Assembly (NCBI GenBank): GCA_041660505.1
Contig: JBAZWG010000002.1
Span: 868 to 64,867 of the forward strand
Length of the DNA: 64,000 nt
Direction: 5' to 3'
From: Minisyncoccota bacterium
GTDB taxonomy: Bacteria; Patescibacteriota; Minisyncoccia; Phycocordibacterales; JACRKE01
Shown piece by piece: positions 8,194 to 51,873 of the stretch (its first letter is position 1; every line of letters starts with the position of its first letter). The position numbers and the translations under genes were made by a program. A model generated the notes under the pieces. It was given only the letters and a program-made list of their open reading frames with translations. It did not search any database and had not been told where the DNA came from.

Positions 8194-8201
8194 AGCAGAT
8201 T

Positions 8202-9164
8202 ATGATAGAACGCTTTACTGTAAAGATGCTTAGAGGATCGGCAGAGCAATTGAAATTCAAGTGTATTGTTGAGCCTAAGTTCGGCCATGTCGGTTATATA
8301 GAAAATAATACCGGCGAGAGATTCTTTTTTAAGTTATCAGCTCTGGATATAAATCCACTGGGCGCTTCGAAGATTGCGACTGATAAAGATTATACGCAAT
8401 TCCTGCTGGAGAAATTCGGTTATCCTGTGATATCCACAGAAACATTCTTCTCTGACGAATGGTGCAGAATAAATAATACCCAGAATAATTTAACTGCCGC
8501 ACTGGAATACGCAGAAAAGGTTGGTTATCCGCGCATAGTTAAACCCAACAGCAAGGGCCAGGGTAGGGGAGTGGCCAAAGTATATTCCGACGAAGAGCTC
8601 AAATTGGCACTTATTAATATTTTCGCAATAGATAATATCGCGCTTATACAGCCTTGCGTTCCGGGTACTGATTATCGCGTTGTAGTGTATAAAGATAAAG
8701 TTGTAGCGGCATATTCTCGCACGCCACTTATTATATTCGGCGACGGAATAAAAAGCATACGAGAGCTCTTGCCTGCATATGACATACCACTGCCAACAAT
8801 CGTATCGAGGATAAAGCGCGAGTATAATTTGACATTGGATTCTATCCCAAAAAATGGCGAGAGATTACAGCTTCTGGATAATGCCAACCTCTCGACCGGA
8901 GGCCAAGCCAGAGACATGACAGATACTATATGCGATAACGCGAAAGAGTTAGCCATAAAAGCGGTAAAAGATCTGGGGCTCAATCTGGCGGGCGTTGATA
9001 TTTTAACCACAGACGATATCGAGAAGAGCATGGTAGAATATGTAATTGTAGAGGTTAATTCGATGCCGGGCATGGAACATTATTCGGCACTAGGTCCGGA
9101 CCAGCTTGAGCGTACTCGCAGATTATACATAGATATAGTGCAAGATTATTTTAGCCATGATTAG
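8202..9164 (+). CDS. ATP-grasp ligase, D-Ala-D-Ala ligase (Ddl)-like with a short divergent N-terminal domain
   Basis: ASKIATDKDYTQFLLEKFGYPV resembles the Ddl ASALSMDKLRSKLL..GLPV segment. YPRIVKPNSKGQGRGV matches the ATP-grasp P-loop region. C-terminal YVIVEVNSMPGMEHYS resembles Ddl EANTSPGMTSHS. It lacks the Ddl N-terminal HGxxGEDG motif. It occupies the slot between mraY and ftsW usually held by murD. Confidence 0.65.
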   Translation: MIERFTVKMLRGSAEQLKFKCIVEPKFGHVGYIENNTGERFFFKLSALDINPLGASKIATDKDYTQFLLEKFGYPVISTETFFSDEWCRINNTQNNLTAALEYAEKVGYPRIVKPNSKGQGRGVAKVYSDEELKLALINIFAIDNIALIQPCVPGTDYRVVVYKDKVVAAYSRTPLIIFGDGIKSIRELLPAYDIPLPTIVSRIKREYNLTLDSIPKNGERLQLLDNANLSTGGQARDMTDTICDNAKELAIKAVKDLGLNLAGVDILTTDDIEKSMVEYVIVEVNSMPGMEHYSALGPDQLERTRRLYIDIVQDYFSHD

Positions 9165-33547: not shown

Positions 33548-33592
33548 AATTTAAGTTGAAAGTTATAAAGTTACAAAGTTGAAAGTAATACG

Positions 33593-33603: not shown

Positions 33604-34255
33604 CAGCTTGCCCGCCGACGAGGCGGGGCAGATGTAAGGCCAAACTCTCAAGAATAAGTTTAATGGCCGGCGCCGTGTCGTGTATATATTGCTTGCTCTT
33701 TTCGAGCAGTTCGAAGGCTGTTTTGTCTTTTTTCGCCAGTTCCGGGTTCTTTGCATAATATATTTCTAAAGCAGACAATATTGCACCGGCATCGTATTTA
33801 GTCCGCGCGTGCACTTCATCACTCTCATCGCGCACGTCAAAGAATGTCTTTTCTAGATATTTCAACCGTTCGATCGGCGTTTTCCTCAGAAACTTTTCTG
33901 CGTCGAAAACTTCTTCACTTGGAAGCTTAGCTTCCAAGTCTTCTAAAATATGTAATCTTGAGCGGAGGGTTGGTAATAAGTCATCCGGATACGGCGTAAT
34001 GATAACAAACTTAGTTCCGGGCATTGGCTCTTCTAGTGTCTTGAGTAGAGCATTCTGCGCCTCTCGTCCGAAGCCGTACGCGCCGATACTGAATGTCTGT
34101 ACATCCCCGTCTGCCACTGCCAAGCTTGCCCTGCGGTGCAATTCATGTGCGTCGGCGATATCAAATGTTACGTAAACTTCATCAGCAGAGACGGGCTCGC
34201 CTTGTATCAAGAATGCATGGTGAGTTGAAAGTTGAAAGTTGAAAGGGGTTCGCAT
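33599..34255 (-). CDS. holB: DNA polymerase III delta' subunit-like (AAA+ clamp-loader subunit without a P-loop)
   Basis: HHAFLIQGE (degenerate Walker A region, as in delta') and ALLKTLEEPMPGTKFVIITPYPDDLLPTLRSRLHI (sensor-1 / SRC-like motif). 218 aa. Codons 5-11 (FNFQLST) are encoded by an (AGTTGAA)3 heptamer repeat. Confidence 0.65.
   Translation of the reverse strand: MRTPFNFQLSTHHAFLIQGEPVSADEVYVTFDIADAHELHRRASLAVADGDVQTFSIGAYGFGREAQNALLKTLEEPMPGTKFVIITPYPDDLLPTLRSRLHILEDLEAKLPSEEVFDAEKFLRKTPIERLKYLEKTFFDVRDESDEVHARTKYDAGAILSALEIYYAKNPELAKKDKTAFELLEKSKQYIHDTAPAIKLILESLALHLPRLVGGQAV
34222..34244. repeat. (AGTTGAA)3 tandem heptamer repeat immediately downstream of the holB start codon
   Basis: gagttgaaagttgaaagttgaaagg. 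It is related to (AGTTGGG)4 at the fmt 5' end and to AAGTTGAAAG motifs at 33551-33590 and 48301-48360. Confidence 0.7.
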
Positions 34256-34260
34256 TTTAC

Positions 34261-34289
34261 TTTATACTTTAAAACTTTGTAACTTTCAA
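34261..34289 (-). promoter_or_regulatory. sigma70-type promoter for holB (TTGAAA-17-TATAAA); TSS predicted at or next to the ATG (leaderless)
   Basis: Minus strand: TTGAAA, then a 17-nt spacer, then TATAAAGT ending 6 nt before ATG 34255. Built from AAAGTTN heptad repeats. Confidence 0.5.
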
Positions 34290-34293
34290 CTAT

Positions 34294-35319: not shown

Positions 35320-35381
35320 TACCCTACTATAGCAAACACTTTTTACTGTCCAAAGCTTAGCTTTGATAATTTCGATATGTG

Positions 35382-35396: not shown

Positions 35397-36077
35397 ATGC
35401 GAATTATTGAATTTTGTGCGAATGAATATTACCACGTCTTTAACAGAGGCAATAATAAACAAGTAATCTTTCGCGATGATAGCGACCGTTTCCGATTCCT
35501 GTTCGCACTGCTTTTTTTTCAGGCTCCAATCAGCTATGACCAGATTGGCAGATATATAGTGTTTTTAAAAAGGCACAGGACGGACATTAGCCAGAATGAT
35601 TCATTAAAGGATTTAGCGGAGCACGTACTGGGCAAACGCTCTATAGAATTAATCAATTTTTGTCTTATGCCAAACCATTTCCACCTTGCCGTTAAGCCAA
35701 TGAAGGATAATGCAGTGTCGCTATATTTACATAAAGTATTAACTTCGTATACAAAATATTGGAATAAAAAATATAAGGCGACGGGACACCTGTTCGAAGG
35801 ATCATTCAAAGCTGTCCGTGTTGCTGATAATGACCAGTTTTTATATCTATCGACCTATATACACAGAAACCCCGCTGAATTATCGACGTGGATTGGTCGC
35901 GAGCATGAATATCCGTGGTCGAGTCTGCAAGACTACCTTGGTGTTAATCGTTGGGGAAAACTGCTTGCGACCGAAAATATTTTAGAGCAATTTGACTCGA
36001 TTGAGGAATATCGGGCTTATGTTAACGATAGCACAGCAAAAACCGGCGATGACGACATCGAGTTTGTCCAAAGCTAA
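35397..36077 (+). CDS. REP-associated tyrosine transposase (RAYT), HUH/Y1 family
   Basis: YHVFNRGNN...IF.DD.DR.RFL.LL, HUH motif LMPNHFHL, GHLFEGSFK, catalytic-Tyr region YIHRNPAELS, and the C-terminal YPWSS motif. Start at ATG 35397 (ORF-track GTG 35379 rejected). Confidence 0.7.
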   Translation: MRIIEFCANEYYHVFNRGNNKQVIFRDDSDRFRFLFALLFFQAPISYDQIGRYIVFLKRHRTDISQNDSLKDLAEHVLGKRSIELINFCLMPNHFHLAVKPMKDNAVSLYLHKVLTSYTKYWNKKYKATGHLFEGSFKAVRVADNDQFLYLSTYIHRNPAELSTWIGREHEYPWSSLQDYLGVNRWGKLLATENILEQFDSIEEYRAYVNDSTAKTGDDDIEFVQS

Positions 36078-36094
36078 GCTTTGGACATTGGACC

Positions 36095-38344: not shown

Positions 38345-41300
38345 TTACGGCGTCGTACTCGTCGCATTTGGGTCTATTACGTTAACTATTCTTATCTGTT
38401 CGATGGCATTATTACCTGAATTATCTACTGCGTTATATTTAACCTCATGTGTACCGGCTAATGTTGTGTCTATCTGATCGCCTGTCGTGACTATGCCGAG
38501 ATTATGATCTACGTTGTCTGTAACTGTTGCGCCCATGTCGCTGTAACTCGAGCCCATGTTTATTGTAGATGGGTTGAGGCCGAGCATTGTGATGACCGGA
38601 GCCTCTGTGTCTGCTGGCGGGGTCGAAGTACCAGCAGGCGCCCCGGCTGGGGCAGTTCCTGCCACGCACTCCCCTGCTACGCTGGCGACGAGGCCACTTG
38701 ACACCTTCAAACAATACGGATTGCCTGTCGTGTCGTCATATAATGTGACACCTATCGGGTTTACTGACGAGCCAACCTTCATACTCTTTAACACGTTTAA
38801 GTCTTGTACCACCAATCTGCCGTTCTCGTCCAAGCTCCAGTTGCCCGAGGCAGAAGCCAGACTCTTTATATTGACTATTGCTTGCCCTTGCAGGTCGAGT
38901 ACGCGCGCTGTTGCGAGCTTCATATAACCCGTACTTTGATCTACTACCCAGTCTGAACTCACGGCGCCGTCTGCAATACCCGAAGAAATATTCTGATAAC
39001 CAAGATTGACGAAGACAGTAATACTGCCTGTCTGTGAATAAGAGCCGTCGGGTAGAGTGCCGCTCCAAGGCTCAAGGGCGATACCAACAGTCTGGCCGGA
39101 GGTCGTCGCCTTCATACCGATACCTGCCGCCGATGAAAGCGTGATGTAGTCACCAACCGCAATATCCCCTCCTTCAAGGTTAACTTTAGTCGGCACGCGA
39201 CCAGAGAGAGCCACGGGACGCGAAGTACTCGCCGTAAACTCCGAACTTGCACCACCGAGCAGAACACCGGGGTCAGTAGATATGATTCCTATTACCGGTA
39301 TGATAGTAGAACTTGCCTTTCTCACAACAAGAGTCGAGGTAGAAGTATCCAACGATACTAAGTCACCCGCCGAGATAGTCTCGTCCGTTATTTTGTAACT
39401 CTCTGCCAGGTCCACGGTTTGCGTCGAAGCTCCTCGAGAATAAATCTGTCCTGCCGGTACAGAACTACATGCTACCGTAGCGGAACTCGTTGACACGCAA
39501 AGACCGGAACCAGTCCCTGTTCCGTAAACTTCGAGCTTCGCCCCTGGCGTCGTCGTCCCGATACCGACGTTGCCCCCCTGTGCCTGAAAAGCGATATTCT
39601 GATTATATCCCGTGTTCTGCTGTATTCCTTGAAATTCAAAGACATTTGAGGCATTGGACATTGTAACCTGTAGTTGCTTTTGTGTTGTCCCCTGCTGATT
39701 TCCAAACTCCATAAGTTTAACGCGGTCTGTTGCAGTCTCGCTTACTGGAGAGATAACTCCATTCACGCTTAGCTTGTAGTTAGGTGTGGTTGTCCCGATG
39801 CCTACGTTGCCCGCGTTTGTTATTGACAACTTCTCCGAGCCTTGTACCGCTAACCCCATGGTTGCTCCTGTACCTCTTGCGTCTAAGAACGCTTTACCAG
39901 CATTACTCGTGTATATAGACAGACCAGTAGCGGCAGCAGCGGAGAAGGTGTTGTTGCCAATTACCAATCCATAAGGGCTATCATCATCTCCTGTTATTTT
40001 TAGCAGTTGTGTTGCGGCTGTCCCACCATCAAGAATTTCAAGTTTTGCCGAAGGACTCGTCGTCCCGATGCCGACGTTGCCATTCTGTTGTATTCTCATC
40101 TTCTCAGCATTAGCTGGTGAGAATGAGATATAGTTTCCAGTACCAGCAGAGTAGTTGGTTTGGAAATCAAGTGAATTATCACCAGCGTCATTGAAGGTTA
40201 TTTTGGCATACTGTCCCGCTACTCCTGCGCCCAAGTTATCCAAAACGATTTGCGGATTGCCGCGAGTCCCCTCGTGAATTGAAAGTTTAGCCCACGGAGT
40301 TGTGGTTGCAATTCCGACATTACCATTCGTATCTATCATCACTTGGTCAGTATTTGAATAGGAGTCTGACCCTTTTCCAAAAAACATTGTCCCATTACTA
40401 CTCTGTATGTAGCGATGATGCAAACCAGATACGGCATCGGTATCAGAAAGATAAAACATTGGGGCGATATTGGCGATATTTAACAAATATGCTGGCGTCG
40501 TCGTCCCGATACCGACGTTGCCGTTTCGGAGCACTGTGAACGATGTCGTTGTTGCCGTTAATGTTGAGCTGGCCACCGTGAATATCGGCTGGGTGCCGTC
40601 AACATTGCTGTCGCTTGTGTTGGCGGAGACAGAGAGTTTGGCCCATGGGGTTGTGGTGCCGATACCGACTAGCCCGCCGGAGGTGATACGCATGGCTTCG
40701 GTCATTGCGGTGCTATTGTTGGTACTGAAAGCTAAGTAGCCAAGTTGATTGTTTGTTGTAGAGTTTTCTTTAAACCCAACGATGCTGGCGAAATTTCTGA
40801 TCGATGAGGGGATTAATGGTACATCGTCTTTATAACCACCGAAGGCGATAGAGCCACCGGTATCTACAGCTTGGGAATTATTCGATCGTATCAATAATTG
40901 TCCCGTAGCGGTACGCGTCGGGACGGTGCTCGAGCCATAGATATCAAGCAGAGCTAGCGGCGTCGTCGTGCCGATGCCGACATAGCCACTGCGGAGGATT
41001 GTAAATAATGAATTGGTGGCGCTGGCGGTAGAGCTCGCAACGACAAAGAGCGGGGTGGCCATGTTGGCAGAGGAGTCGGTCGTATTGCCTTGTATCGAGA
41101 GTTTAGCAAATGGTGAGGTAGTGCCGATGCCGACAAAACCATTAGTGGTGAATTGGCCTGTGCTTGTGGTGGTGGCGTTGCCGTTCACGGTCAAAACAGA
41201 TGTTGATGTTGTGCCTGTTGTAGTGAGGTTGGCGTTGGTGCCAGAGGAACCAATGAGAACGCCACCGGCAAAGTTGGCGGCGACGCCGTTCGGGTTGGTA

Positions 41301-44300
41301 ATTGGATAGCTGACAATAACAATACCGGAACCGCCACCGCCACCCGCGCCTCCTTCTGTAGCACCGCCACCTCCACCGCCCGAGTTAGTGGTTCCGGCAG
41401 TACCAGCACCAGAAGTACCTCCTGCGCCACCGCCACCAAGCCCTCCAGAACCTCCGCTTTGAAGATCGCTGGAGCCACCACCACCGCCACCATAGTAGAC
41501 GGTGGTTACACCATCGCTAATAGCGGTAGTTGTGCCTATTCCGCCGACGCCGGCGGCTGCATCTGACCCATTACTACCAGTAGCACCCGCTCCGCCACCA
41601 CCACCGCCACCATTATTCTGTGCCGCTCCGCCACCATTATAGCCTTGCCCCGAAGTACCGTTACCGCCTGATTGACTGCCGGCACTGGCAGCACCGCCAC
41701 CAGAACCACCATCGCTACCAGCCCAAGTGAACGCTTGAGAACCTCCCTTACCTCCTCCTGTGGCCACTACAGTACCAAACTGCGAATCGCCTCCGTTAGT
41801 ATTAGTGCTACCGGTAGCACCCGCTCCGCCAGCACCGACTACTACTGTTATGCTTTGAGAAGGCGTCACCGCGTATGAATATCCGTTACTAGGTCCGCCG
41901 CCAACAACTCCTCCTCCACCTCCTCCACCGCCATCAACCCACGAAGTAACGCCGTTCTTGCCTCCACCGCCACCACCTGCCACCACGAGCACCTTAACGC
42001 TGGTTACACCACTACTTGGAACGGTAAAAGTGACAGACCCGGTATTGGTAAATGTATGAACCCTGTAGGTCTGTCCACCTGACGTATAGGTAGTGACGGT
42101 TCCTTGATTGTCTGTAGCCGATGGCGTTGAGCCTACTGCATTAACATCGAGTGAATATGCCGGCGTCACAACGCCGATGCCGACGAGGCCTGCGGACGTG
42201 ATAGTTGTTGTTGCAGTTCCTCCAAACCACGACTGATCGTTGACGGAAAGTTGAGTTGTCGAAGCATTAGTAAACGTGGCTTGGCCGGTGACTGCGAGCG
42301 TGCCGGATAATGTCGTTGCGCCGGTGACGGAGAATGTGCCACCAACGGATGTGTCGCCGGAGACAACGAGAGCTGATGTGCTTGCTGTGCCCGTCACCGC
42401 CAGATTCGTCGTCGTGGCGTTGGTGCCTGTGGCATTCACGAAGGTGAAGTTTTGGAGGGTGGTGCTACCTGTGAGCAAGATGTTGGTGGCGGTGAGGAGA
42501 CCGTTATTAAGAAGCGTAAGCCTCTCGTTGTTCGCGAAGTCGGCGAAGGCGAAGAGTCTGCCGGTGTCATTGGTGCCGAAGCCGTTGACGGCGAACTTGG
42601 CGGATGGCGAGGTTGTGCCCACGCCGACACGGTCGGAATATGAACTGCCGGTGCCGTCGGCAAGAGCGTAGACCGTGAGGGTGGAGGTAGCACCAATGCC
42701 AGCCGAGAAGCCGAGCTCGGTACCGGAGGCGAGCGTTGTCGAGGCGAGAGGCATATTGATCCAATCAATGAGACCGGCGTCGGCCTCGAAGGATTGCGAG
42801 CCGGTGATGAGCTGGGCAATGGTGGTTGAGCCGGTGTTGTCTATAGAGAAGAGCGTGGTGGAGGCACTGTCTGTGACTTCGAAAGCTCGGCCTGATGACG
42901 TGGCTGTGCCCCAGATGGTAACCTTGGCATATGGCGAAGTGGTGCCGATGCCGACGTTGCCTGTCGATGAAATGTAGATGGAAGAGGTGGCCTGTGCTAC
43001 TCCCGCATCGTTACCGACGAGCAAGAAGCCTTTCGTAAGATTGAGAGTGGTGAGAAGTGAGGATGTGGCAGTTGAATACAATCCGCCGGTAGAAGTAAGT
43101 GATGCAAAACCGGATGTGTAAGAAGAGAATGTCGCGTTGCCGGAGACTATGAGCGCGGATGTGCTTGCGATGCCCGTCACCGCCAGATTTGTCGTTGTCG
43201 CATTCGTGCCCGTGGCGTTTGCGAAAGTAAAGTTCTGGAGAGTAGTTGACCCCAGTGTAAAGATATCGCCGAGATAATTCACAGAGAATTTGGTGGAGGA
43301 TGCGACTTTCATATCTAGCAACATACCGGAGAAACCGGCTAGGGCATCGGTGCCGATAACTGTGCCCGTGGTGGAGAGTTTTTCGACAGAAAGTAGGGCG
43401 TATGGTGATGAGGTACCAATGCCCAACAAGCCTTCGGCGGTCACTGCGCCGAGAACCGTACCAGAACCATTTTGCCATTCTTGCAGATCTGCTGTTTGGC
43501 TTGTGATGCCTTGTACGATCAAACCTTTTTCACCGACCTCAGCAGTGCTGACGTGAAGTTTAGCGAGCGGTGTGGCATGCGAGGTGGCGGTATTGCCGAG
43601 AACAAGGGAGCCTATGAAGATCCAATCTGATTGGCTGGCGCTTATATTGAGTTTGTAATATCTATAGTTCTGTGCTGTACCTAGGGCATATGTTCTGATT
43701 TCACCAGAGCTCCAAGCGGGAACATTTGTTTGTGTATTCAAAACAGTCCATGCCGAATTGTCGTTTGAACCCTCGAATGTCCAAGTTTTTGGCCCATAGG
43801 TGTAATAAGTGGTATACGAGTCTGCCTGGATTTTATATTGATTTACAGTTGTATAGGTTCCCAAATCAATTTTCAACCAACCTGAAGTACCATTAACACA
43901 CCACGCCGTCGAAGAATCTGAATCAAAAGATTGCCACGCAGAACAGTTGACCTCTGTAGACGCACTTGCCACATACGGCGAAGGGGCGCTGTCGCTCGTC
44001 AAGAATGTCGGGATCTGAACATTTGCCGGCGTAGAACCAATAGCTAAGCGAGAGTTTATCGAGTCAAAATACATGATGCTGTTATTCTGACTGACTGCTC
44101 CATTAGCACCAATATACGGGACAGAGCCAGAAGTAAGCGCGGTAAGCGAGAGCGTACCGCCAACCGTTGAATTGTCGCTGACGATGAGCGCAGAAGTTGA
44201 TGCTGTACCCGTGACTGCAAGGTTGGTGGTTGTCGCATTGGTACCCGTAGCATTGGCGAAAGTGAAGTTCTGCAATGTAGTTGATCCCAACGTAAAGATG

Positions 44301-47300
44301 TCGCCAAGATAATTTACGGAGAACTTGGTGGATGAGGCGACTTTGAGATCAAGTAACGTACCGGTAAATGTTGATAATGAATCAGCGCCAATGACGGTGC
44401 CTGAAGAAGATAGATGTTCGATAGAGAGACGAGCATATGGGGTTGAAGTGCCCATTCCGATCAGGCCGTTATAGAATGATGTGAAGATAGGGGCGGAACT
44501 TGTGGCGTTTTGTAATGAAAATATGGAGATACTTTGTGAACGAGAGGTCGTAGCGTTGAGCGAGAAGAAGCCGTTCACATTCAGACTGTTCCAAAGTCTG
44601 GTATTCCCCGCCACTTCGACATTGCCGGATGAGAAAATGTCGCCGGAGTAAATTGATGATGCGCCGGAGTCGGCCTCGGCAAGAGTACTGCTTGAGTAAG
44701 CGAAGCCGATCATGTCAAGAGTACCAGCCAGCATTGTGCGCGCCAATGATGAATATTCAACAGATGAAAGTGCGGTCGTACCGCCATCATTTGTTCCGGC
44801 GATGGCATAAACATAACCATTTACAACAAGAGATGTGTGATATTCCCTAGCACCGCTAAATGGCGTAGCGGTGAGCGTCGTCCACGCGCCGAGAGTGCCA
44901 TTTGCATATATCTTGGCATATTCGATGGAGGAAAGGTTGCCGCCGCCGATACCGCCCATCGCGTACAAATATCCGTTTGCCACCACGGCGGATAACGCTC
45001 CTCTGGCTGTATTAAGAGGAGTTGCGGTGAGCGTCGTCCACGCGGCCAGCGTGCCGTCGCTGTTTATCTTCGCTGACTCTACCGACGATATGGACGTTCC
45101 ACTTGTTATTCCACCAATTGTATAAATATATCCTCCAACAACAACTGACGCGTGAATATTTCTGGCTGCGTTAAGCGGTGTCGCCGTTAGGGTCGTCCAT
45201 GTACCAAGCGTACCGTCACTATTTATCTTCGCATATTCGACGGTAGCGGTATCGCTTATGCCGGTACGACCGCCCATAACATATACATAACCGTTAGAAA
45301 CTACGGAGGCGTGCGCGTATCTGGTGATATTTAATGATGCCGTCGTTTTCCACGCACCGAGCGTGCCGTCGCTGTTTATTTTTGCGTATTCGACAGTATT
45401 AACCTGTACTCCACCTGTACCATTACCACCGATGGCGTAGACATATCCGTTGGCGGCGATAGAACTGTGCTGATATCTTGTGATGGTAAGCGATGACGTT
45501 GTTGTCCACGCACCAAGTGTGCCATTACTGTTTATCTTGGCATATTCGACAGATGAAAGCCTGGTACCGTTGTATCCACCGATGGCGTAGACATATCCGT
45601 TGGCGGCGACTGATGTCTGTTGGTAACGAGTCGTGCCTAGAGATGATGACGTTGTCCACGCGCCAAGTGTGCCATCATTGCCGGAGTTGAGCGCAATTGT
45701 TTTCTGCGCAACCGATACCGGATACACAGGGGATGAAGTCCCGATGCCGACGTTGCCGCTATTCTGCTGGACAACGAATTGCGATGTGCCAACTGTTAAG
45801 CCGCCCGTTGAGAATGTGGAAGTGGCGGTGGTGGAAGTAATTGCGAGCACGCTCGTTGTACCGATTGATGCGGTAAAATTCTGGAGCGTGGTACTGCCCA
45901 GCGTAAAGATATCACCGAGATAATTCACCGAGAACTTGGTGGAGGATGCGACTTTGAGATCGAGCAATAGGCCGGAGAAGCCGGTGAGCGCATCTCCCGC
46001 GATAAGCGTGCCGGCAGAAATCCCGTCGACGGAGAGCTTGGCGTAGGGCGTTGAGGTACCGATACCGACGTTACCGGCAGTACCTTCTATCACCATGCTG
46101 GTTTGCGGTGTTGCAAACATGTCTCTCGGAGTAGTTAGGAACCGAATTGCTGTTGGTACGGTGTCACCATTGTCTTCGGCTTGTTTCGCGGCGACAATAT
46201 CCAAGACTCGCGCATAACGACCCGCAGACGGATAATCTATTACATAGTTATATGAAAATGTGGCTCTGTCGTCCGCCAAATAACTCGGCAAACTCGTTCC
46301 TCCATATCCTCTGAATATTTTTATATCTTTACCATAAACGTCTAAACCTGCAGTGGGACTTTCGGTCCCTATTCCTACGTTGCCGCCGCGTGTTACAACA
46401 AAGTTAGTTGTTGTAGCAATATCGGTTGAGGATGATATCAAGAAGAGCGGTGCGATTAGGTCTAGATCGGAAGTGTTGCCACTCACAGAAAGTTTCGCGT
46501 AAGGCGAAGTGGTACCGATGCCGACGAGGCCAGTATCGGTGATGGTCATCCGCTCGGCACTGGCGGTTACGAATCGAAGGAAGTCGTCATCACCGGCGGT
46601 GATGTAGGTGGTCTGGGCGGCGTTGATGACACCGCCTAGGCCTTGCCAGACACTGTTGTCGCCGAAGCCTTCGAACTGGTGCGTCGTTGTGTTGTAACGG
46701 ATCTGGCCGGCAAGCGCCATGCCCGGTCTCTGGGCTGTTGTGCCAATTGGGAGATGGACTGCGTCGGTGGCGTAGATGTCGAGACTCGTGGCCGGTGTTG
46801 AAGTGCCAATGCCGATGCGACCGCTTGATGACTGGACGATGAATTGGCCGGAACCGATATTAAGGCCGCCTGTCGCGAACGTCGATGTAGCTGTTGTCGA
46901 TGTCGCAGTGAATGACGAGGCGACCACTTCGCCCATAACAGAGAGCGGTGCATATGGCGAGCTGGTGCCGATGCCAACATTGGAATTGCGGTAGATGTTG
47001 GAGCCGTTCACCGTCCAATTGGAGAATACTGCCGCAACACCATTCTGGAGTAATGAACCAGTGATGTTGATATCGCCCGCCACATCGAGCGCATGTTCGG
47101 GAGAAGTAGTGCCAATGCCGACAAGGCCGGTGAAGATGGCGCCAGTGCCGGTGGTGGTGCCCGTAAGTGTCCCGCCACCAAGCGGCAGATACCCGGAGAT
47201 TGTGCCCCCGCCGGTGAAGGTGCCGGAGATGGTGGCATTGGTGATGGTAACGCCGTTCAATGAATCGATGCGATTAGAGAGACTGATGGCGCGATAGTTG

Positions 47301-47833
47301 CCGGCATCGACAGCGGCGCCATGCGAAGCGTTGGCGTAGATGAGGGCTGTGAGTTTGTTGTCGAGCTGGTTCAGCTTGGTAGCCAAGTCACTTGATGTAA
47401 CACCGGAACTTGTTTGTTGGTAAATGATTGTTGGTTTGGTTGTTGTAACGGTTCTCGCGGGCGCACTGCCGATGACAGAAATCTTGCCCGCCAAACTATT
47501 GACTTGATCACGTAATGCTTGTATATCGCTGTTTACAGTTGTAGTTGACAGAGTATCAGATATCGTGGCAATGTCGGTGACTTTTTGACTGATAACAGGG
47601 GTGGTAACTGTGACTGTCGGAGAGGGCTTTTGGACCTGCGGAGAGAAGAAGGAGATGAGCGACGTTTGAACGCTATTGAATATGTCCCCTATCGTACTGC
47701 TGATGCTTGCCATATATTGGCTAGGTAGAGCCGTATATTCATTGACGAGGGAGGCGTGAGCTAGCGAAAAATTTGCAATAAAAAAGACGGTTAAAACCGC
47801 AAAGTAAACTACAAATTTTCGCACCGAATGCAT
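38345..47833 (-). CDS. giant secreted multidomain surface protein (3162 aa). It has tail-fibre-like GIGT repeats, a Kelch-type beta-propeller, a discoidin (F5/8 type C) domain, a Gly-rich domain, a tail-fibre-like C-terminal module and an Ig-like (DUF5011-type) domain.
   Basis: Signal peptide [27 protein letters not shown]. About 20 copies of G(N/L)VGIGT(T/S)(S/T)PxAKLxV. About 6 YVYAIGG Kelch blades (aa ~715-1060, nt ~44650-45690). Discoidin-like [31 protein letters not shown]...YRYYKL (aa ~1290-1415). Gly-rich [14 protein letters not shown]... (aa ~1955-2175, nt ~41320-41960). [19 protein letters not shown] module (aa ~2808-2990). C-terminal Ig-like [31 protein letters not shown] (nt ~38380-38610). 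No C-terminal TM or sortase signal. Confidence 0.85.
   Translation of the reverse strand: [3162 protein letters not shown]
42300..46000. repeat. three to four near-identical ~250-300 bp direct repeats inside the giant gene
   Basis: Copies around 45860-46000, 44160-44350, 43140-43330, and a partial copy at 42300-42480. They encode (G/M)LLD(L/M)[46 protein letters not shown]. They are potential recombination or size-variation substrates. Confidence 0.7.
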
Positions 47834-47986: not shown

Positions 47987-49669
47987 ATGCAGGTCATCAC
48001 ACTTATCCCCATCGTCCGTGGTATCGGCAAAGACGAGCTTACCTACTTCTCTACCCTGCCTGTCAAGGTCGGCGACATTGCCACTGTCACCATCAACTCG
48101 CGCGAAGTGCGCGGGATAGTCACGGACGTACTCGACGCGAGAACGGCAAAGAATTCTGTGAAGCGCGGAGACTTCGCGCTAAAGAAGGTTCTGAAGATCG
48201 AGCCGGGATTTATTGCACCATCTGTCATTTCTGTAGCAAAAGAAACTTCTGATTATTTCGCTTGTTCAGTGAGTCAGGTTCTCGGCTCGATGTACCCCAA
48301 AAACGTACTAAACGAAGTTGAAAGTAAAAAGTTGCCGTGCCTGCCGGCAGGCAGGAAAGTTGAAAGGAATCACCCCTCTCCTTCGGGGAGGGGCCGGGGT
48401 GGGGTTGCAATCGAAGGAACCCGGCAAGATCGTTTTGTTTGGATTCAAAAAAACTTAATCAAGAGGAATATGAAAGTCTTATATATTTCACCATCGAATC
48501 ATGAACTAGCAAAAGCTAAAAAAGTTTTCAATGATACTGAAATTATTTGCGTATCGCCGGAATATGGCTTTGTATGGCTACCTTATGTCGATACGATAAT
48601 TTTAGATAACGAAAGTGGCGCTGGCTATCATGATAATTCACGGGCACAAATAGATTTTAAAAAAGTGTACGAATTTCATGCGCTGGAAAATAAACAGCAA
48701 ATAATTTTCGCTGATAACGTGCTTGATCTCAAATATTTCGCAAATCCAAAAAGTGGCCAACATCGGGTGTTGACCACTTTTCCAAAAGTTATGGTGGTAA
48801 AAAAGGAAAAAACTGCTCTGCATAATTCTTGGCTCGTGAGTAAAGAAGCAGTGGGATTGACGGAAAAAATACTTGCAAAAAATTCTAGAATGTTCTTCTT
48901 CGCTCCACGTAAAAGTATCGCGAGTATCACCGTATGTGGTGATTGCGGCGAAACCGTGCAGTGTGAGACTTGCAAACGGCCACTTATGCTCGCACGCAAG
49001 AATGGTAAACGAATATTCATCTGCCAAAAATGCTCTCAAATCACGCAAGTAGATATATCATGTGCAAGCTGTAATAGCTGGAAGTTGAGACCCCTGGGTG
49101 TGACAGTTGACTCTGTCGCTGATGAGCTGGAGCGATTATTTCCCAAGGCGACCGTCTTGCGAGTGTCGGGCGACATCACAAAGACCAAGACCCAACTTGC
49201 AAAAATCATCAAACAATTTTATGCCACATCCGGCGCGCTGCTCGTCGGCACCGAGCTTGCGCTCCCCTATCTCGAACAGCTAATTTCTTATTCTGTAATC
49301 TCCAGTATCGATTCGTTTTTATCAGGCAGAAGTTTGTCAGGTACGGACAAAGCCGCGCGAATTATCTTTGAGGTTGCAACCCTTGCCCATGAAAAAGTTT
49401 TAGTAGAAACAAGCGACCCACACCAGCAATTTTTTCAAGATATTTCTGATGGCGGAGGTTTAACCTCCGCTATGCTAAAAACATATCGCGAACATGAACT
49501 TGCAGAAAGAAAAAAGTTTAACTATCCGCCATACAGTATTATCATAAAAATAAATTCAGAAATATTTTTTATAAATAAAGAGAAGTGGCCGGACGCAGAA
49601 CTCGTCGCGAGAATTCGCGCGTTGCCAAAGGGCTCAACCTACACCATAGACGCAAACAGTGTCGTGTAG
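47987..49669 (+). CDS. primosomal protein N' (PriA)-like, with degenerate helicase ATPase motifs
   Basis: Start set at ATG 47987 (TACAAT 6 nt upstream; ORF-track TTG 47948 rejected). N-terminal 3'-DNA-binding domain. PriA Cys-rich zinc-binding region CGDCGETVQCETCKRPL...CQKCSQ...CASCNS is collinear with the E. coli PriA CHDCG..CPRCD..CHHCD..CPSCG region. Walker A GxTGSGKT is absent (YISPSNHELAKAK instead), and DEEH is replaced by DNES (IILDNESGAGY). It carries an in-frame REP-like element at 48301-48360. Confidence 0.6.
   Translation: MQVITLIPIVRGIGKDELTYFSTLPVKVGDIATVTINSREVRGIVTDVLDARTAKNSVKRGDFALKKVLKIEPGFIAPSVISVAKETSDYFACSVSQVLGSMYPKNVLNEVESKKLPCLPAGRKVERNHPSPSGRGRGGVAIEGTRQDRFVWIQKNLIKRNMKVLYISPSNHELAKAKKVFNDTEIICVSPEYGFVWLPYVDTIILDNESGAGYHDNSRAQIDFKKVYEFHALENKQQIIFADNVLDLKYFANPKSGQHRVLTTFPKVMVVKKEKTALHNSWLVSKEAVGLTEKILAKNSRMFFFAPRKSIASITVCGDCGETVQCETCKRPLMLARKNGKRIFICQKCSQITQVDISCASCNSWKLRPLGVTVDSVADELERLFPKATVLRVSGDITKTKTQLAKIIKQFYATSGALLVGTELALPYLEQLISYSVISSIDSFLSGRSLSGTDKAARIIFEVATLAHEKVLVETSDPHQQFFQDISDGGGLTSAMLKTYREHELAERKKFNYPPYSIIIKINSEIFFINKEKWPDAELVARIRALPKGSTYTIDANSVV
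48301..48360 (+). repeat. REP/MITE-like element in frame inside the priA-like gene. It is AAGTTGAAAG-flanked, with a 14-bp perfect palindrome gcctgccggcaggc.
   Basis: gaagttgaaagtaaaaagttgccgtgcctgccggcaggcaggaaagttgaaagg encodes ...NEVESKKLPCLPAGRKVERN.... A second GC hairpin (cccctctcc-ttcg-gggagggg-like) follows at 48372-48395. It is near-identical to the minus-strand copy at 51549-51583. Confidence 0.7.
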
Positions 49670-49678
49670 TATAGTAGG

Positions 49679-50254
49679 GTGATGAAAGTGATGTTGGATG
49701 GCGCACCGGTACTGCGCGAAAAAGCAAGAGAAGTACCTGTACCGGATATCAAAAAAGGCTTATATAAAGCCATGGTTGCAGACATGCAGGCTACGCTCCT
49801 GAAGTGCCACGATGGGGTAGCCTTGGCCGCCCCGCAGGTCGGCAAGAGCATCAGATTATTCGTAATATCGCCAAAAGTATTTCAAGCCGAACAGGAGTTA
49901 GGAGATGGGAGATCGGAGTTAGGGAAATCCAAAACCGTATCCCCCAAACTCCAAACTCCTAACTCCCAACTCCCACGCCTCGTCTACTTCAACCCTAAAA
50001 TAAAAAAAGTTTCTGCCAGTAAAAAAGATCTCGATGAAGGCTGCCTCTCGGTGAACGGCCTCTATGGCAAAGTCCCGCGCAGTACAAAGGCGCTGATTGA
50101 AGCCTACGACGAATACGGTATGAAGTTTACGCGCGGAGCATCGGGCCTGCTCGCGCAAATCTTCCAACATGAAGTCGATCATCTTGATGGCATTCTCTAT
50201 ATCGACAAAGCATCGGAACTCAAGCAATTAGAAAGTAGGAAAACAGATGCTTAA
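49679..50254 (+). CDS. def: peptide deformylase, carrying an ~28-aa repeat-encoded insertion
   Basis: GVALAAPQVG, EGCLSV and QHEVDHLDG motifs are intact. The segment ELGDGRSELGKSKTVSPKLQTPNSQLPR lies between the conserved VIS and LVYFNP blocks, where E. coli Def has only ~8 residues. Confidence 0.9.
   Translation: MMKVMLDGAPVLREKAREVPVPDIKKGLYKAMVADMQATLLKCHDGVALAAPQVGKSIRLFVISPKVFQAEQELGDGRSELGKSKTVSPKLQTPNSQLPRLVYFNPKIKKVSASKKDLDEGCLSVNGLYGKVPRSTKALIEAYDEYGMKFTRGASGLLAQIFQHEVDHLDGILYIDKASELKQLESRKTDA
49911..49987. repeat. imperfect hairpin element built from GGAGTTN / AACTCCN heptamers, in frame inside def
   Basis: Left arm gggagatcggagttaggg, a ~20-nt loop, right arm ccaaactccaaactcctaactcccaactccc. 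Confidence 0.65.
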
Positions 50255-51164
50255 TTCGAATGGAAGTTGGGAGTTGGGAGTTGGGAGTTGGGGAAAATAC
50301 AACTTCGTATTTTTTGGTACTTCTAACTTCGCCGTCATAGTTTTAGACGAGCTCAAGGCCGGCGGCTATCTACCGAGTTTAATTATTACAGTGCCTGATT
50401 CCCCGCAGGGCAGAAAGCAGATAATTACTCCTTCACCGGTTAAACTCTGGGCAATTGAACATAATATCCCTATCGAACAACCCGAGAAACTCCTAACTCC
50501 CAACTCCCAACTCCTAACTCCTAACCGTGACTTCGGCATTGTCGTTGATTACGGCAAAATCATTCCGCAGAAAATTATAGATATCCCGAAACACGGACTT
50601 CTGAACGTACACGTGTCTCTTTTGCCAAAATTTCGCGGGGCTTCGCCAATGCAAACAGCAATACTTGAAGGCGAAGCAGAGACCGGCGTAACTATAATGC
50701 AAGTGGTAAAGGGGCTCGATGAAGGCGATATAATTGCACAAGAAAAATTTGATTTGGCTAACTGGCACCCGTATTTTCTTGAACTTGCAGACAAAACCGC
50801 ACATGCCGGCGGTAAATTGCTTGTAAAAATTCTGCCGGATTATCTCGCCGGCAAAATTACACCAATTAAACAAGATAATTCTAAGGCAACTTTTACGCGA
50901 AAATTCGAGGTGCAAGACGGTTTTATAAAACCTGAAATCGTGCTGGGCACAGAGACTGGAGAATTGGCGCAAAAAGCAGAAAGAAAAGTCCGTGCCCTGA
51001 ATCCAGAACCCGGCACCTGGACCGAGTTAAAAATAAGAAATACGGCTCTACGTATAAAGATTCTGAAGGCGCACTTAGAAGTAGATAAATTTATACCCGA
51101 CACTGTAATACCCGCCGGCAAGAAAGAGATGTCGTGGCAAGACTTCAAAAACGGGAATCTGTAA
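50247..51164 (+). CDS. fmt: methionyl-tRNA formyltransferase
   Basis: Start ATG 50247 overlaps the def stop (ATGCTTAA). VFFGTSNFAV, HVSLLPKFRGASPMQ, and a C-terminal domain. The N-terminal 13-aa extension SNGSWELGVGSWG is encoded by (AGTTGGG)4. LLTPNSQLLTPN is encoded by (AACTCCN)5. Confidence 0.9.
   Translation: MLNSNGSWELGVGSWGKYNFVFFGTSNFAVIVLDELKAGGYLPSLIITVPDSPQGRKQIITPSPVKLWAIEHNIPIEQPEKLLTPNSQLLTPNRDFGIVVDYGKIIPQKIIDIPKHGLLNVHVSLLPKFRGASPMQTAILEGEAETGVTIMQVVKGLDEGDIIAQEKFDLANWHPYFLELADKTAHAGGKLLVKILPDYLAGKITPIKQDNSKATFTRKFEVQDGFIKPEIVLGTETGELAQKAERKVRALNPEPGTWTELKIRNTALRIKILKAHLEVDKFIPDTVIPAGKKEMSWQDFKNGNL
50254..50286. repeat. (AGTTGGG)4 tandem heptamer repeat at the fmt 5' coding end
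   Basis: gaagttgggagttgggagttgggagttgggg. Confidence 0.75.
50491..50529. repeat. (AACTCCN)5 tandem heptamer repeat inside fmt (reverse complement of the 50254 repeat family)
   Basis: aactcctaactcccaactcccaactcctaactcctaacc. Confidence 0.75.
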
Positions 51165-51165
51165 G

Positions 51166-51540
51166 CTACGCCTTCTTAAGACCTTTTAAAATTTTCTTGA
51201 TCTTTCTTGCCCCTCTAGTTCTAAGAGTTTGAGCGCGGTCCTTCTTCGAAACAATTTCGCGCTCGAGCTCATCTTTCATCGCGTCTATGGAAGCATAGAG
51301 GTCGTCTGTCGTAGCCGAGGCGTTATAACTGTCTTTACCCACCTTGACGTGCGCTTCCGCCTTAAACAATAATCCCGAATGATGATGTTTGGTCGTCTTG
51401 CCGATCTCGACTTTTACTAATACAGTGTCGAGCTTCTCTTGCTTAACGAGCAATTTCTTTAGCAAGCCAAACTTCTTCTCGACATACAACTGTATCGCCG
51501 GTGTCAACTGCATCTCTATCGCGTTGATGTTTAACTTCAT
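51166..51540 (-). CDS. hpf: ribosome hibernation promoting factor (HPF/RaiA family)
   Basis: 124 aa. MKLNINAIEMQLTPAIQLYVEKKFGLLKKLL... fits the beta-alpha-beta-beta-beta-alpha fold with the conserved N-terminal signature. Confidence 0.85.
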   Translation of the reverse strand: MKLNINAIEMQLTPAIQLYVEKKFGLLKKLLVKQEKLDTVLVKVEIGKTTKHHHSGLLFKAEAHVKVGKDSYNASATTDDLYASIDAMKDELEREIVSKKDRAQTLRTRGARKIKKILKGLKKA

Positions 51541-51548
51541 AGCGTGAG

Positions 51549-51600
51549 GTTATTTAATAAACTTTCCTGCCTGCCGACAGGCATGGCAACTTTATACTTT
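51549..51600 (-). repeat. REP-like element copy in the hpf leader / promoter region. It has a TATAAAGT -10-like box, the gcctgtcggcaggc palindrome, and (AAAAGTT)2.
   Basis: Minus strand reads gttaaaagttaaaagtataaagttgccatgcctgtcggcaggcaggaaagttta. About 90% identical to 48311-48352. Confidence 0.65.
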
Positions 51601-51606
51601 TAACTT

Positions 51607-51873
51607 TTAACTATTCTGAACACCTCCAGAGCCGCGCATACGTATGCTCGCCGTATCGAAGATACTGAAGAGCTTCGAGGGTGATGTGTGGCCGGAGATA
51701 AGGCGCACAAGCTTCTCCTCTACGCCTAATGTTCTTGCCAAGAGCTCTGTAACTTTCTTATTAGCGAGATTGCGCTCGGCCTTCTCGCGCACCCACATCT
51801 CATACTTGTCAGAAGACACCTTTGTTACACGATCAGCCTTGGCGCCCGGCGTAACCTTAACGTGGATATACAT
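51607..51873 (-). CDS. DUF167 / YggU-family protein
   Basis: 88 aa; MYIHVKVTPGAKADRVTKV...LGV...GHTSPSKL matches the YggU (UPF0235) pattern. Confidence 0.55.
   Translation of the reverse strand: MYIHVKVTPGAKADRVTKVSSDKYEMWVREKAERNLANKKVTELLARTLGVEEKLVRLISGHTSPSKLFSIFDTASIRMRGSGGVQNS

Follow-up and report, generated by a model that had tools for sequence, protein, structure and literature searches.

A GC-rich 20/21-nt palindrome nested in AAAGTTR heptamer repeats of a Paceibacterota genome lies in frame in a PriA-like gene and upstream of hpf, and recurs across bacterial phyla and phage contigs

The 64-kb window (the whole stretch of DNA analysed in this study) carries a composite repeat twice, once within the coding sequence of a PriA-like gene (copy 1) and once in the spacer between a DUF167/YggU gene and hpf (copy 2). 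The genes and features are as follows:

47987-49669, plus strand: PriA-like gene (560 aa; Pfam PriA_3primeBD), which hosts copy 1
48314-48334, plus strand: left heptamer tract of copy 1, GAAGTTG AAAGTAA AAAGTTG, translated as EVESKKL
48335-48355, plus strand: palindromic module of copy 1, CCGTGCCTGCCGGCAGGCAGG, a 21-nt variant of the 20-nt core, translated as PCLPAGR
48356-48369, plus strand: right heptamers of copy 1, AAAGTTG AAAGGAA, translated as KVERN
48373-48404, plus strand: second hairpin module, GC-rich, CCCCTCTCCTTCGGGGAGGGGCCGGGGTGGGG, immediately after copy 1 and in the same loop of PriA, translated as PSPSGRGRGG
51166-51540, minus strand: hpf (Ribosomal_S30AE), downstream of copy 2
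51559-51565, minus strand: single heptamer AAAGTTT between the copy 2 module and hpf, which together with the hairpin gives a terminator-like call
51566-51586, minus strand: palindromic module of copy 2, CCATGCCTGTCGGCAGGCAGG
51587-51612, minus strand: heptamer tract of copy 2, AGTTAAA AGTTAAA AGTATAA AGTTG (tandem-repeat call by TRF at 51588-51612, period 7)
51607-51873, minus strand: DUF167/YggU gene, upstream of copy 2 and on the same strand as hpf

A repeat search placed 48315-48361 (plus strand) and 51560-51606 (minus strand) first in length among the inverted pairs of the window, at 47 nt and 91% complementarity, with the two copies 3.2 kb apart. Both contain the 14-nt palindrome GCCTGYCGGCAGGC (48339-48352 and 51569-51582), for which five matches with no more than two mismatches were found in the window against 0.63 expected, a number that no shuffled sequence reached. 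The five matches represent the two copies read on both strands and a site with two mismatches at 32606. The original prediction of a near-identical palindrome repeated in the PriA-like gene and the hpf leader is thus borne out by a pair far above chance (91% identity over 47 nt), and the positions given there (48311-48352 and 51549-51583) are corrected by 10-15 nt, the 39-nt consensus lying at 48323-48361 (plus strand) and 51560-51598 (minus strand).

The AAGTTGAAAG and AACTTT motifs described as flanks of the repeat exist and are tandem heptamers, (AAAGTTR)n. The unit is not a single REP/MITE-like element of about 40 bp, as had been supposed; it is a composite of an AAAGTTR heptamer tract and a separate, nested palindrome, which in the window is the 21-nt CCRTGCCTGYCGGCAGGCAGG. 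The consensus of this GC-rich 20/21-nt module is CC(R)TGCCTG(Y)CGGCAGGCAGG, with a perfect stem of 8 bp in the 20-mer and a stem of 6 bp in both window variants, and it contains no stop codon in any frame. Copy 2 differs from copy 1 at two positions, the bulge base and the loop, both outside the 6-bp stem. Folded as single-stranded DNA, the modules reach -6.9 kcal/mol (copy 1) and -6.4 kcal/mol (copy 2), and the RNA fold of copy 2 has a z-score of -2.9.

In copy 1, the heptamer tract restarts with a complete AAAGTTG right after the module, and the middle unit of its left tract reads AAAGTAA instead of AAAGTTG, so that the in-frame TGA of a perfect (AAAGTTG)3 is avoided. In copy 2, the tract extends over the TAA (51607-51609) with which the DUF167 reading frame ends. 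Heptamer arrays free of the core are present elsewhere in the window (33553-33587, 34223-34245 and 34259-34291), indicating that the core is separable from the tract, and in def an array and an inverted array form a hairpin (49893-49975, z = -5.3). Because the rarer 21-nt variant is found in both window copies, each time at an identical place within a heptamer tract, they are most likely derived from one another as a composite.

The PriA-like protein is 100% identical to a protein of a Candidatus Paceibacterota MAG (WC764_04075; P0001). Its degenerate helicase motifs are a by-eye reading. Among protein families, only the 3′-DNA-binding domain was recognised (Pfam PriA_3primeBD, residues 18-104), with no helicase-domain family matched. 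As originally predicted, the open reading frame at 47987-49669 translates copy 1 in frame, as ...EVESKKLPCLPAGRKVER..., in the linker past this domain; the element peptide occupies residues 110-125, just C-terminal to the domain match. The loop is modelled as disordered by AlphaFold, with pLDDT below 50 at residues 122-137 against a mean of 82, and the composite together with the second hairpin module would supply most of this disordered linker of about 30 residues. The second module, part of which is a tandem-repeat (TRF) call (48384-48404), folds together with copy 1, and a module similar to CCCCTCTCCTTCGGGGAGGGGCCGGGGTGGGG occupies the same PriA site in relative L003. A single match to CCTTCGGGGAGGGGCNGGGGTG was found in the viral collection, and wide spread of the second module is therefore not claimed.

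The nearest PriA relative is 64% identical. The DNA at this site consists of a different repeat or hairpin sequence in each of the four closest relatives, and every relative has some linker there. Neither window locus has an empty counterpart in a close relative, and insertion at both would be read from the identity of the repeats. The insert in PriA is probably neutral, a passenger sequence.

Searching genome contigs with the 20-nt core pattern TGCCTGNCGGCAGGCAGGAAAG returned at least 120 loci, where about one would be expected by chance (a rough estimate from the size of the collection). Among the matches listed, 63 belong to Bacteroidota and 29 to Patescibacteria, with further ones in Omnitrophota, Gammaproteobacteria MAGs and others and no cyanobacterial record. 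Cultured carriers include Zunongwangia, Dokdonia, Galbibacter and Arenibacter. In the viral collection the core was found in 35 stretches (about 44 sites), including one 29.5-kb phage contig with six copies, and two control palindromes of the same composition, both of which fold at least as stably as the core as single-stranded DNA, gave 0 and 0 matches there. The flanks of identical 20-mers are unrelated between loci. With the same 20-mer scattered over many phyla and viral contigs, a REP/MITE confined to the source genome was rejected. Two copies were seen in the 64-kb window, and the 21-nt variant is tandemly amplified in one locus (L160), which ends in a repeat array.

The plasmid collection contained no true copies of the core; the best match there, the sequence encoding ETGLPAGR in a Runella aldehyde dehydrogenase, is ordinary coding sequence. 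The composite pattern had no match in metagenome contigs, and a looser pattern had 18, all unrelated. In 18 loci carrying the core, no known RNA families were detected except an unrelated tRNA and a group II intron domain, the latter 2.4 kb from one core.

The sites occupied by the core are biased towards intergenic DNA, 26% of them lying within an ORF of at least 150 aa compared with 73% of random positions. Pfam-checked in-frame cores are present in genes for RpoB, Cpn10 (GroES), class II aldolase, thiolase and alpha/beta hydrolase, and a PriA of Flavobacteriaceae carries one just after the 3′-DNA-binding domain, in the same loop as the PriA-like protein of the window. At another locus (L151), ARAGORN calls a 92-nt tRNA-Met in which the core forms an extra arm; once precisely these 20 nt are deleted, a canonical tRNA-Met of 72 nt remains. 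Target-site duplication is thus absent at this tRNA, which is restored by exact removal of the core, and in the window, where complete AAAGTTG units abut it on both sides. A weak preference for R before and Y after the core was the only target-site motif, with a weak purine bias at position -1 (40 viral sites).

Elsewhere, the core also lies between lineage-specific heptamer units (GGTGAGA, GGTGAAA, TCTCGTC and TCGTATT, and AAAGTTR in L079). Such nesting was found for about 7-11% of all core sites. When non-coding bias is taken out the association is weak, at 7-9% of sites compared with 4-5% of random non-ORF positions of the same loci. Lag-7 periodicity at the core is 7-10 times that at random positions but 1.6-1.9 times that at random non-ORF positions, and owing to this small enrichment we do not claim that heptamer arrays are targeted. 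Ungapped complementarity of the flanks, which would place the core at the tip of longer local hairpins, was not enriched overall and was striking in a few loci. Compensatory stem changes among core variants were uninformative, most of the apparent variants being register-shifted matches.

Letter-for-letter identity of the 20-mer in many phyla and in phage contigs indicates that it acts like an extremely small insertion element. We consider it fairly probable that the repeat has two layers, an AAAGTTR heptamer tract and a nested 20/21-nt palindrome with the behaviour of a non-autonomous, very small insertion module. The heptamer tracts would fill short intercistronic spacers of this Paceibacterota genome and intrude into gene ends and loops, and the palindrome, which here sits between heptamer units, would represent a clean 20-nt insertion that leaves no target duplication. 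The module would then persist where an extra hairpin or a loop of seven residues is harmless, as in spacers, the variable arm of tRNA and surface loops of proteins.

By analogy, the closest counterpart is the small dispersed repeats of cyanobacteria. In 2008, Elhai and colleagues reportedly described in Genome Research the repeats SDR4-6 and the STRR heptamer repeats of Nostocaceae; SDRs are said to be hairpin-forming, dispersed sequences of 21-27 nt that encode no protein and frequently lie embedded in tandem heptamer arrays or in repeats of other kinds, and the heptamer tracts are said to intrude into genes as well. By this definition, the core resembles SDRs in its length of 20-21 nt, its hairpin, its dispersal among unrelated flanks and its lack of coding capacity. 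Nesting in heptamer tracts holds for both window copies and the core of L079, but over all sites it is just 1.6-1.9 times as frequent as at random non-ORF positions. SDRs have been reported only in Nostocaceae (PMC5861425), whereas, comparing the two by description, the 20-mer is present in Bacteroidota, Patescibacteria, Omnitrophota, others and phage contigs. Unlike SDRs, it is also frequently translated in frame in housekeeping proteins.

Insertion in frame is shared with the Rickettsia palindromic elements, which are about 150 bp long, are restricted to Rickettsia, occur in unrelated housekeeping genes and are tolerated because the added peptide falls in surface-exposed segments (PMC10969869). 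The core similarly lies in frame in conserved protein genes (PriA-like, RpoB, PriA, Cpn10, aldolase, thiolase and hydrolase), but it is 20-21 nt long, adds about seven residues and crosses phyla. MITEs such as Correia/NEMIS and ERIC are non-autonomous and intergenic, measure about 50-500 bp and have both terminal inverted repeats and target-site duplications; they can nest, and some provide neighbouring genes with promoters or hairpins that influence them (PMC10969869). Here, by contrast, nothing but a 20/21-nt palindrome makes up the module, its heptamer flanks are direct and not inverted, target-site duplication is absent, and the promoter scan of the element was negative. As for the heptamers, AAAGTTR is a lineage-characteristic tandem repeat like TAACTGA, which in Beggiatoaceae, cyanobacteria and some Bacteroidetes is concentrated in intergenic regions, close in front of start codons, is untranslatable on one strand because of stop codons, and has a patchy distribution that suggests horizontal spread (PMC4679880). 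The unit differs here, and a nested palindromic module, which is not described in that work, is present.

REPs are imperfect palindromes specific to a genome or lineage, with a conserved GTAG head, that flank their own RAYT gene; REP/BIME sequences are short, GC-rich and mostly intergenic, often just past stop codons inside operons (PMC3116915; PMC3337134). The core shares with them a short, GC-rich hairpin palindrome and a plausible machinery, Y1/HUH enzymes acting on single-stranded DNA hairpins, and the window does encode a RAYT-like protein. It is nevertheless unlikely that this Y1 protein (35397-36077) copies the repeat as a classical REP/REPIN family of the genome. The protein is encoded 12 kb away, matches Pfam Y1_Tnp at 41 bits, above the gathering score, and has REP_Tyr_transpos as its best NCBIfam match, but the latter scores 38 bits, far under the 80-bit cutoff. 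In relative L003, a Y1 homologue lies between fmt and hpf and is flanked by three GTAG-headed palindromes, AAAGTAGAATCGGATTCTAC, indicating that systems of the REP/RAYT type exist in the lineage. However, the Y1 gene of the window is flanked by another palindrome, CAAAGCTWAGCTTTG (35351-35365 and 36065-36087), and not by the core, which is a perfect palindrome without a GTAG head (its window flanks read GTTG and then CC). Identity of the core across phyla also argues against a family of this kind, as does the scarcity of a mobilising gene near it, a Y1 homologue being found nearby in just 2 of 155 loci.

Copy 2 lies upstream of hpf on the minus strand, as had been noted, and fills most of the DUF167-hpf spacer, which measures 66 nt in the window. 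The corresponding spacer of relative L003 measures 28 nt and is free of the element, so that hpf does not need a promoter of its own at this position. The original prediction that the element provides the -10 box of an hpf promoter found no backing: a scan for sigma-70-like promoters called none on the element upstream of hpf, the best by-eye reading (TTCAGA-N18-TATAAA) puts the -35 box within the DUF167 coding sequence, and the hairpin followed by AAAGTTTATT was flagged as terminator-like instead. One repeat thus is translated in the PriA-like gene and stands in the hpf spacer, as claimed, while the promoter role gains no support from the scan. Known RNA families had no match at the element. 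Annotation of an hpf promoter is unwarranted without transcript mapping.

It seems improbable, then, that the hpf copy is a selected cis-regulatory element (either a promoter with a hairpin in the 5′ untranslated region or a terminator or attenuator between DUF167 and hpf) and the PriA copy its incidental duplicate. A TATAAA is present in the tract 40-odd nt upstream of the hpf ATG, AAAGTTR tracts yield promoter-like hexamers elsewhere, and promoter-bearing repeats are known, for example the Correia elements (PMC10969869). The terminator-like flag and the z-score of the copy 2 fold also fit such a role, but the stem is limited to 6 bp and the tail contains few T residues. The short distance to an upstream gene on the same strand and the element-free spacer of L003 speak against it as well, and so does translation of the sequence in PriA. 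Identical cores in coding regions, tRNA genes and random spacers of other phyla further argue against a position-specific function. As an insertion module, the composite would widen the operon spacer between DUF167 and hpf and put a stem-loop into the transcript, and any effect of that stem-loop would be that of an intercistronic hairpin or a weak terminator, not of a promoter.

The core is a low-complexity palindrome, (TGCC)2(GGCA)2, and some copies may therefore have originated independently. A scenario with no mobility at all, in which the palindrome arises repeatedly in situ by slippage and template switching and the window copies are linked by local gene conversion, would draw on this build of tetranucleotide repeats, (TGCC)n followed by (GGCA)n. 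It would also draw on the adjoining slippage-prone heptamer arrays, some of which form array/inverted-array hairpins as in def, on the tandem amplification of the 21-nt variant in L160 and on the occurrence of variants in a shifted TGCC register. We judge it scarcely probable given the exact 20-nt identity within unrelated flanks across phyla, the exact 20-nt boundaries in the tRNA and the failure of the two equally stable controls to appear in the viral collection; in addition, flanks show the weak R and Y preference, and most sites have no TGCC-rich context. An assembly or sequencing artefact, or a contig mis-joined at the repeat, is hardly credible. Inverted copies 3.2 kb apart can mislead assemblers and L160 ends in a repeat array, yet the PriA-like reading frame is continuous across copy 1, the order priA-def-fmt-hpf-DUF167 is kept in relatives L003 and L006, and cultured isolates have the core in their genomes, as conserved genes have it in frame.

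Returning to the insertion module, its distribution is suggestive of active mobility. Movement might proceed as a single-stranded DNA hairpin, either through an HUH/Y1-type enzyme supplied in trans or through replicative template switching. No mobilising gene was found linked to the core. In the six-copy phage contig and in L133, a scan of 10 large ORFs revealed no transposase, and only a terminase was recognised. A bolder reading, which we put forward as possible rather than probable, is that CCTGCCTGCCGGCAGGCAGG is a true 20-nt mobile element that spreads inside genomes as well as from phylum to phylum, perhaps with phages as carriers. It would be inserted as a single-stranded hairpin by a trans-acting activity without target duplication. 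Even rpoB, groES, priA and tRNA genes would tolerate it, and it would accumulate preferentially in slippage-prone heptamer tracts. To our knowledge, 20 nt would be smaller than any characterised mobile element. We found no published description of this element and no relevant literature on CCTGCCGGCAGG or LPAGRQ or on palindromic or heptamer repeats of Patescibacteria.

If the module is mobile, the lower size limit of transposable DNA would be pushed down, and attention would turn to the enzyme that recognises an 8-bp hairpin with nothing else attached and, in at least two large phyla, pastes it cleanly into DNA. Mobility would also explain some odd low-complexity peptides (LPAGRQE, CLPAGR and PACRQAG) and account for some of the spurious small ORFs annotated in Bacteroidota and CPR genomes. 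In CPR genomes, gene calling, alignment and assembly can all be led astray by such repeats. A mobile core would, moreover, be a natural marker of insertion-tolerant sites in essential proteins and RNAs, including the PriA linker, the GroES loop, RpoB and the variable arm of tRNA; the PriA linker would have been hit independently in two phyla.

The element seen in the window combines a heptamer tract with a 20/21-nt palindromic insertion module of pan-phylum distribution; it is tolerated both in PriA, as a disordered loop, and between a DUF167 gene and hpf, as added spacer. Both repeat copies of the original prediction are present and form the longest inverted pair of the 64-kb window (48315-48361 and 51560-51606; 47 nt, 91% complementary) according to the repeat finder. 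The span of the original prediction was right, but the sub-coordinates given for the two copies were off by 10-15 nt; base-by-base reading places the predicted 39-nt consensus at 48323-48361 (+) and 51560-51598 (-). Its 14-nt palindrome, GCCTGYCGGCAGGC, spans 48339-48352 and 51569-51582; at ≤2 mismatches it has five matches in the window against 0.63 expected, a count reached by no shuffle. Copy 1 was correctly placed in a priA-like coding sequence, where it is translated as EVESKKLPCLPAGRKV (residues 110-125), and copy 2 takes up 47 of the 66 nt between the DUF167 gene and hpf. The window features discussed here are as follows.

47987-49669, plus strand: PriA-like ORF of 560 aa, host of copy 1
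51607-51873, minus strand: DUF167 gene, same strand as hpf
51166-51540, minus strand: hpf, same strand as the DUF167 gene
50261-50293 and 50487-50528: GGGAGTT/AACTCCC arrays in fmt, translated in frame
35397-36077, plus strand: Y1 (IS200-like/RAYT-like) gene, Pfam Y1_Tnp; best NCBIfam model REP_Tyr_transpos, below cutoff

What had been read as a single REP/MITE-like element consists of two layers, a heptamer tract and a palindrome. Copy 1 is laid out as GAAGTTG AAAGTAA AAAGTTG, CCGTGCCTGCCGGCAGGCAGG, AAAGTTG AAAGGAA, and copy 2 as AGTTAAA AGTTAAA AGTATAA AGTTG, CCATGCCTGTCGGCAGGCAGG, AAAGTTT; the predicted AAGTTGAAAG flanks therefore exist, but are direct tandem heptamers on either side of a 21-nt palindrome. 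The two palindromes differ at two positions (R and Y), one in a bulge and one in the loop, which leaves the 6-bp stem of each copy unbroken. Three more AAAGTTR tracts in the window (33553-33587, 34223-34245, and 34259-34291) are free of the palindrome and fill or adjoin the short mreB-holB-frr spacers, and the N-terminal residues PFNFQLST of the holB-like protein are encoded by an AAAGTTR tract. As read from the sequence, any frame of a perfect (AAAGTTG)3 on that strand would include TGA; in copy 1, the units AAAGTAA and AAAGGAA depart from the consensus, which spares it an in-frame TGA.

The palindrome occurs in many other genomes as well. Scanning one genome per species with the pattern TGCCTGNCGGCAGGCAGGAAAG (21 specified bases) yielded at least 120 loci, where roughly one chance match in 596 Gb would be expected from the collection size. 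Among the matches listed, 63 belong to Bacteroidota (including cultured Zunongwangia, Dokdonia, Galbibacter, and Arenibacter) and 29 to many classes of Patescibacteria; the remainder include Omnitrophota, Gammaproteobacteria MAGs, and single matches in other groups. Common to the listed loci is CC(R)TGCCTG[C/A/T]CGGCAGGCAGG, with unrelated flanks. In IMG/VR, the bare 20-mer core CCTGCCTGCCGGCAGGCAGG was found in 35 stretches at about 44 sites, and arm-swapped and reversed control palindromes had no matches; since these controls fold at least as stably as ssDNA (-8.9 and -8.7 vs -8.0 kcal/mol for the core), neither hairpin stability nor base composition accounts for its abundance. Six copies occur in one 29.5-kb phage contig with a terminase gene. 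BLAST of 7.3 Gb of plasmids, mostly of other phyla, returned no true copy of the core.

The core behaves as a discrete insertion. At 2239-2330 of a viral contig (L151; IMGVR_UViG_3300033148_008720), ARAGORN calls a 92-nt tRNA-Met in which the core forms a long extra arm; once exactly those 20 nt are removed, what remains is a canonical tRNA-Met of 72 nt whose variable loop is normal, and the boundaries are exact with no target duplication. In two other loci (L128 and L158), the core lies in tRNA-like fragments, at variable-loop and D-loop positions, for which ARAGORN makes no call. Core sites are mostly non-coding, with 26% falling within an ORF of ≥150 aa vs 73% of random positions, but many are translated, usually as LPAGRQE, CLPAGR, or PACRQAG. 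In-frame cores confirmed by Pfam occur in RpoB (Saccharibacteria), Cpn10/GroES, class II fructose-bisphosphate aldolase, thiolase, and an alpha/beta hydrolase. A Flavobacteriaceae MAG (L102; JAENXC010000010.1, ~1752) carries an in-frame variant (SCLPAGT) in PriA, ~15 residues past the Pfam 3'BD; this PriA loop is the one that carries copy 1 in the window, struck independently in a second phylum. This PriA looks canonical and helicase-competent by its Walker A motif, GVTSSGKT. Tandem amplification of the 21-nt form is possible: another viral contig (L160; IMGVR_UViG_3300025106_000007) has at least 11 head-to-tail 21-nt variant units GCCATGCCTACCGGCAGGCAG at 3914-4142, running to the contig end, besides several dispersed variants within the same 4 kb.

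The core-in-heptamer architecture is also recurrent. Local heptamer units (GGTGAGA, GGTGAAA, TCTCGTC, or TCGTATT) flank the core in several unrelated genomes, and the array resumes in register on the far side; one locus (L079) has AAAGTTR units with core junctions identical to those of the window. A period-7 signal accompanies 7-11% of core sites vs 0.6-1.7% of random positions, and other periods are not enriched beside the core. Because the excess is only 1.6-1.9x over non-ORF positions drawn at random from the same loci, we do not claim targeting of heptamer arrays; core and heptamers may both pile up simply where they are tolerated.

The PriA-like protein is 100% identical to one from a Candidatus Paceibacterota MAG, and Pfam recognizes only the PriA 3'-DNA-binding domain in it (residues 18-104). 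The insert occupies a disordered linker in which repeats collect across this protein family, because the AlphaFold model (mean pLDDT 82) has coil at residues 113-138, with pLDDT <50 at 122-137, and relatives carry different repeats there. This low-pLDDT segment is the stretch made by copy 1 and a second GC-rich hairpin, CCCCTCTCCTTCGGGGAGGGGCCGGGGTGGGG, 17 nt past it. The linker comparison proposed with the original prediction bears this out: three of the four nearest homologues (36-64% identity) have visibly different repeat DNA, namely (GGAGCTY)4 in L001, a CCCCTCCCCTTCGGGGAGGGG hairpin and, farther along, a 60-nt perfect palindrome in L003, and (AAGAGTC/AAGAATT)n followed by an inverted array in L006. 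No relative has a truly empty linker site, and we therefore infer the insertion at this locus from repeat identity. The L003 palindrome (~4722-4780; nearly perfect, AAACACACACAAGGCAGTCTTCTG GGGCCC ACAGAAGACTGCCTTGTGTGTGTTT) is an extra PriA-like insert translated in frame as KHTQGSLLGPTEDCLVCV.

Window genes are rich in comparable repeat DNA. In addition to the fmt arrays, def contains GGGAGTT/AACTCCC heptamer arrays that pair into a long in-frame hairpin (49893-49975; RNA fold z = -5.3), and an uninterrupted M50/RseP-type peptidase ORF contains a 58-nt compound palindrome, TGAAAATTCGGAGGTCGGACCTCCGA...TCGGAGGTCCGACCTCCGAATTTTCA (32720-32777), with 26-nt arms that are 100% complementary. Here def encodes peptide deformylase and fmt methionyl-tRNA formyltransferase; in relatives, the same def loop has unrelated sequence.

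The predicted promoter role of the hpf-side copy is unsupported. A consensus scan found no sigma-70-type promoter on the element, and instead scored its hairpin plus AAAGTTTATT as terminator-like. AT-rich heptamer tracts elsewhere do produce promoter-like hexamers, so a promoter is unlikely rather than impossible. As the DUF167-hpf arrangement is operon-like, hpf would not need a promoter there. The heptamer tract starts on the DUF167 stop codon. In L003, the gap is 28 nt and the element is absent; in L006, different heptamers, (AATTTTC)n, and hairpins with heptamer flanks lie upstream of hpf.

Among known repeats, MITEs were rejected because the element is too small and shows neither terminal repeats nor target duplication. 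REP/REPIN sequences are likewise palindromic and found in operon spacers, but their defining features are missing: the palindrome has no GTAG head, does not flank the RAYT-like gene of the window, and is not restricted to one lineage. Rickettsia palindromic elements are also tolerated in frame, yet they are ~150 bp and confined to one genus (PMC10969869). The patchily distributed TAACTGA heptamer tracts upstream of start codons (PMC4679880) parallel the heptamer background. The element belongs with very small dispersed hairpin repeats. Nearest in kind are those of Nostocaceae, reportedly described by Elhai in 2008 as 21-27 nt hairpins nested in heptamer arrays. According to PMC5861425, they are not known from bacteria other than Nostocaceae. 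Neither the DNA string nor the peptide led to a relevant paper in full-text searches, which is weak evidence of novelty as much literature is not searchable, and an earlier description may exist. The original interpretation is partly supported; exact identity across phyla and insertions in essential genes set the module apart and give it above-average interest.

We infer both mobility of the module and its mechanism of spread. The "peel and paste" reaction that HUH enzymes carry out on single strands is established for IS200/IS605, and would fit clean hairpin insertion without target duplication; template switching during replication would also fit. Only two of 155 loci have a Y1 homologue close to the core, and the flank logo holds nothing beyond R|core|Y. 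REP/RAYT-type systems do exist in this lineage, given the window Y1 gene and its L003 homologue. The former is bracketed by a different palindrome, (GTC)CAAAGCTWAGCTTTG(GAC), at 35351-35365 and 36065-36087, and with it may form a REP/RAYT system of this CPR genome, separate from the present element; a related palindrome, ACTTGGAAGCTTAGCTTCCAAGT, lies at 33917-33939 in the holB-like gene. In L003, a Y1/RAYT-like gene (7853-8518, between fmt and hpf) is bracketed by three GTAG-headed palindromes AAAGTAGAATCGGATTCTAC (7338-7357, 7819-7838, and 8517-8538), a textbook REP-RAYT layout.

Several further observations were made. No Pfam helicase domain is recognized in the PriA-like protein (3'BD alone); by eye, it has EGTRQDR at the canonical Walker A GxxGSGKT and LDNES at motif II (vs DEEH), changes also seen by eye in Paceibacterota relatives, which suggests an ATPase-inactive PriA derivative. 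Directly upstream and divergent is a giant 3162-aa ORF (38345-47833, minus strand) with many internal DNA repeats (repeat-finder families D1-D13); relatives have Laminin_G_3-domain proteins at this position. In Bacteroidales (L043, L050, L055, L074, L089, L091, L105, L120, and L171), the core lies within a longer conserved repeat, ...TTGTCTTGGGTGCAGGAGCACC-core-AAAGCAAAAACCGTGACAA..., recurring across genomes, in one case 2.4 kb from a group II intron domain. In several Flavobacteriia, such as Zunongwangia and Owenweeksia (L015, L017, L047, L076, and L173), ...(L/I)(K/E)N/T precedes the core in what look like repeated, transposase-like ORFs (...IIENLPAGRQES..., ...VLKNLPAGRQES...), where it may occupy the site of an IS3-type frameshift-stimulating hairpin.
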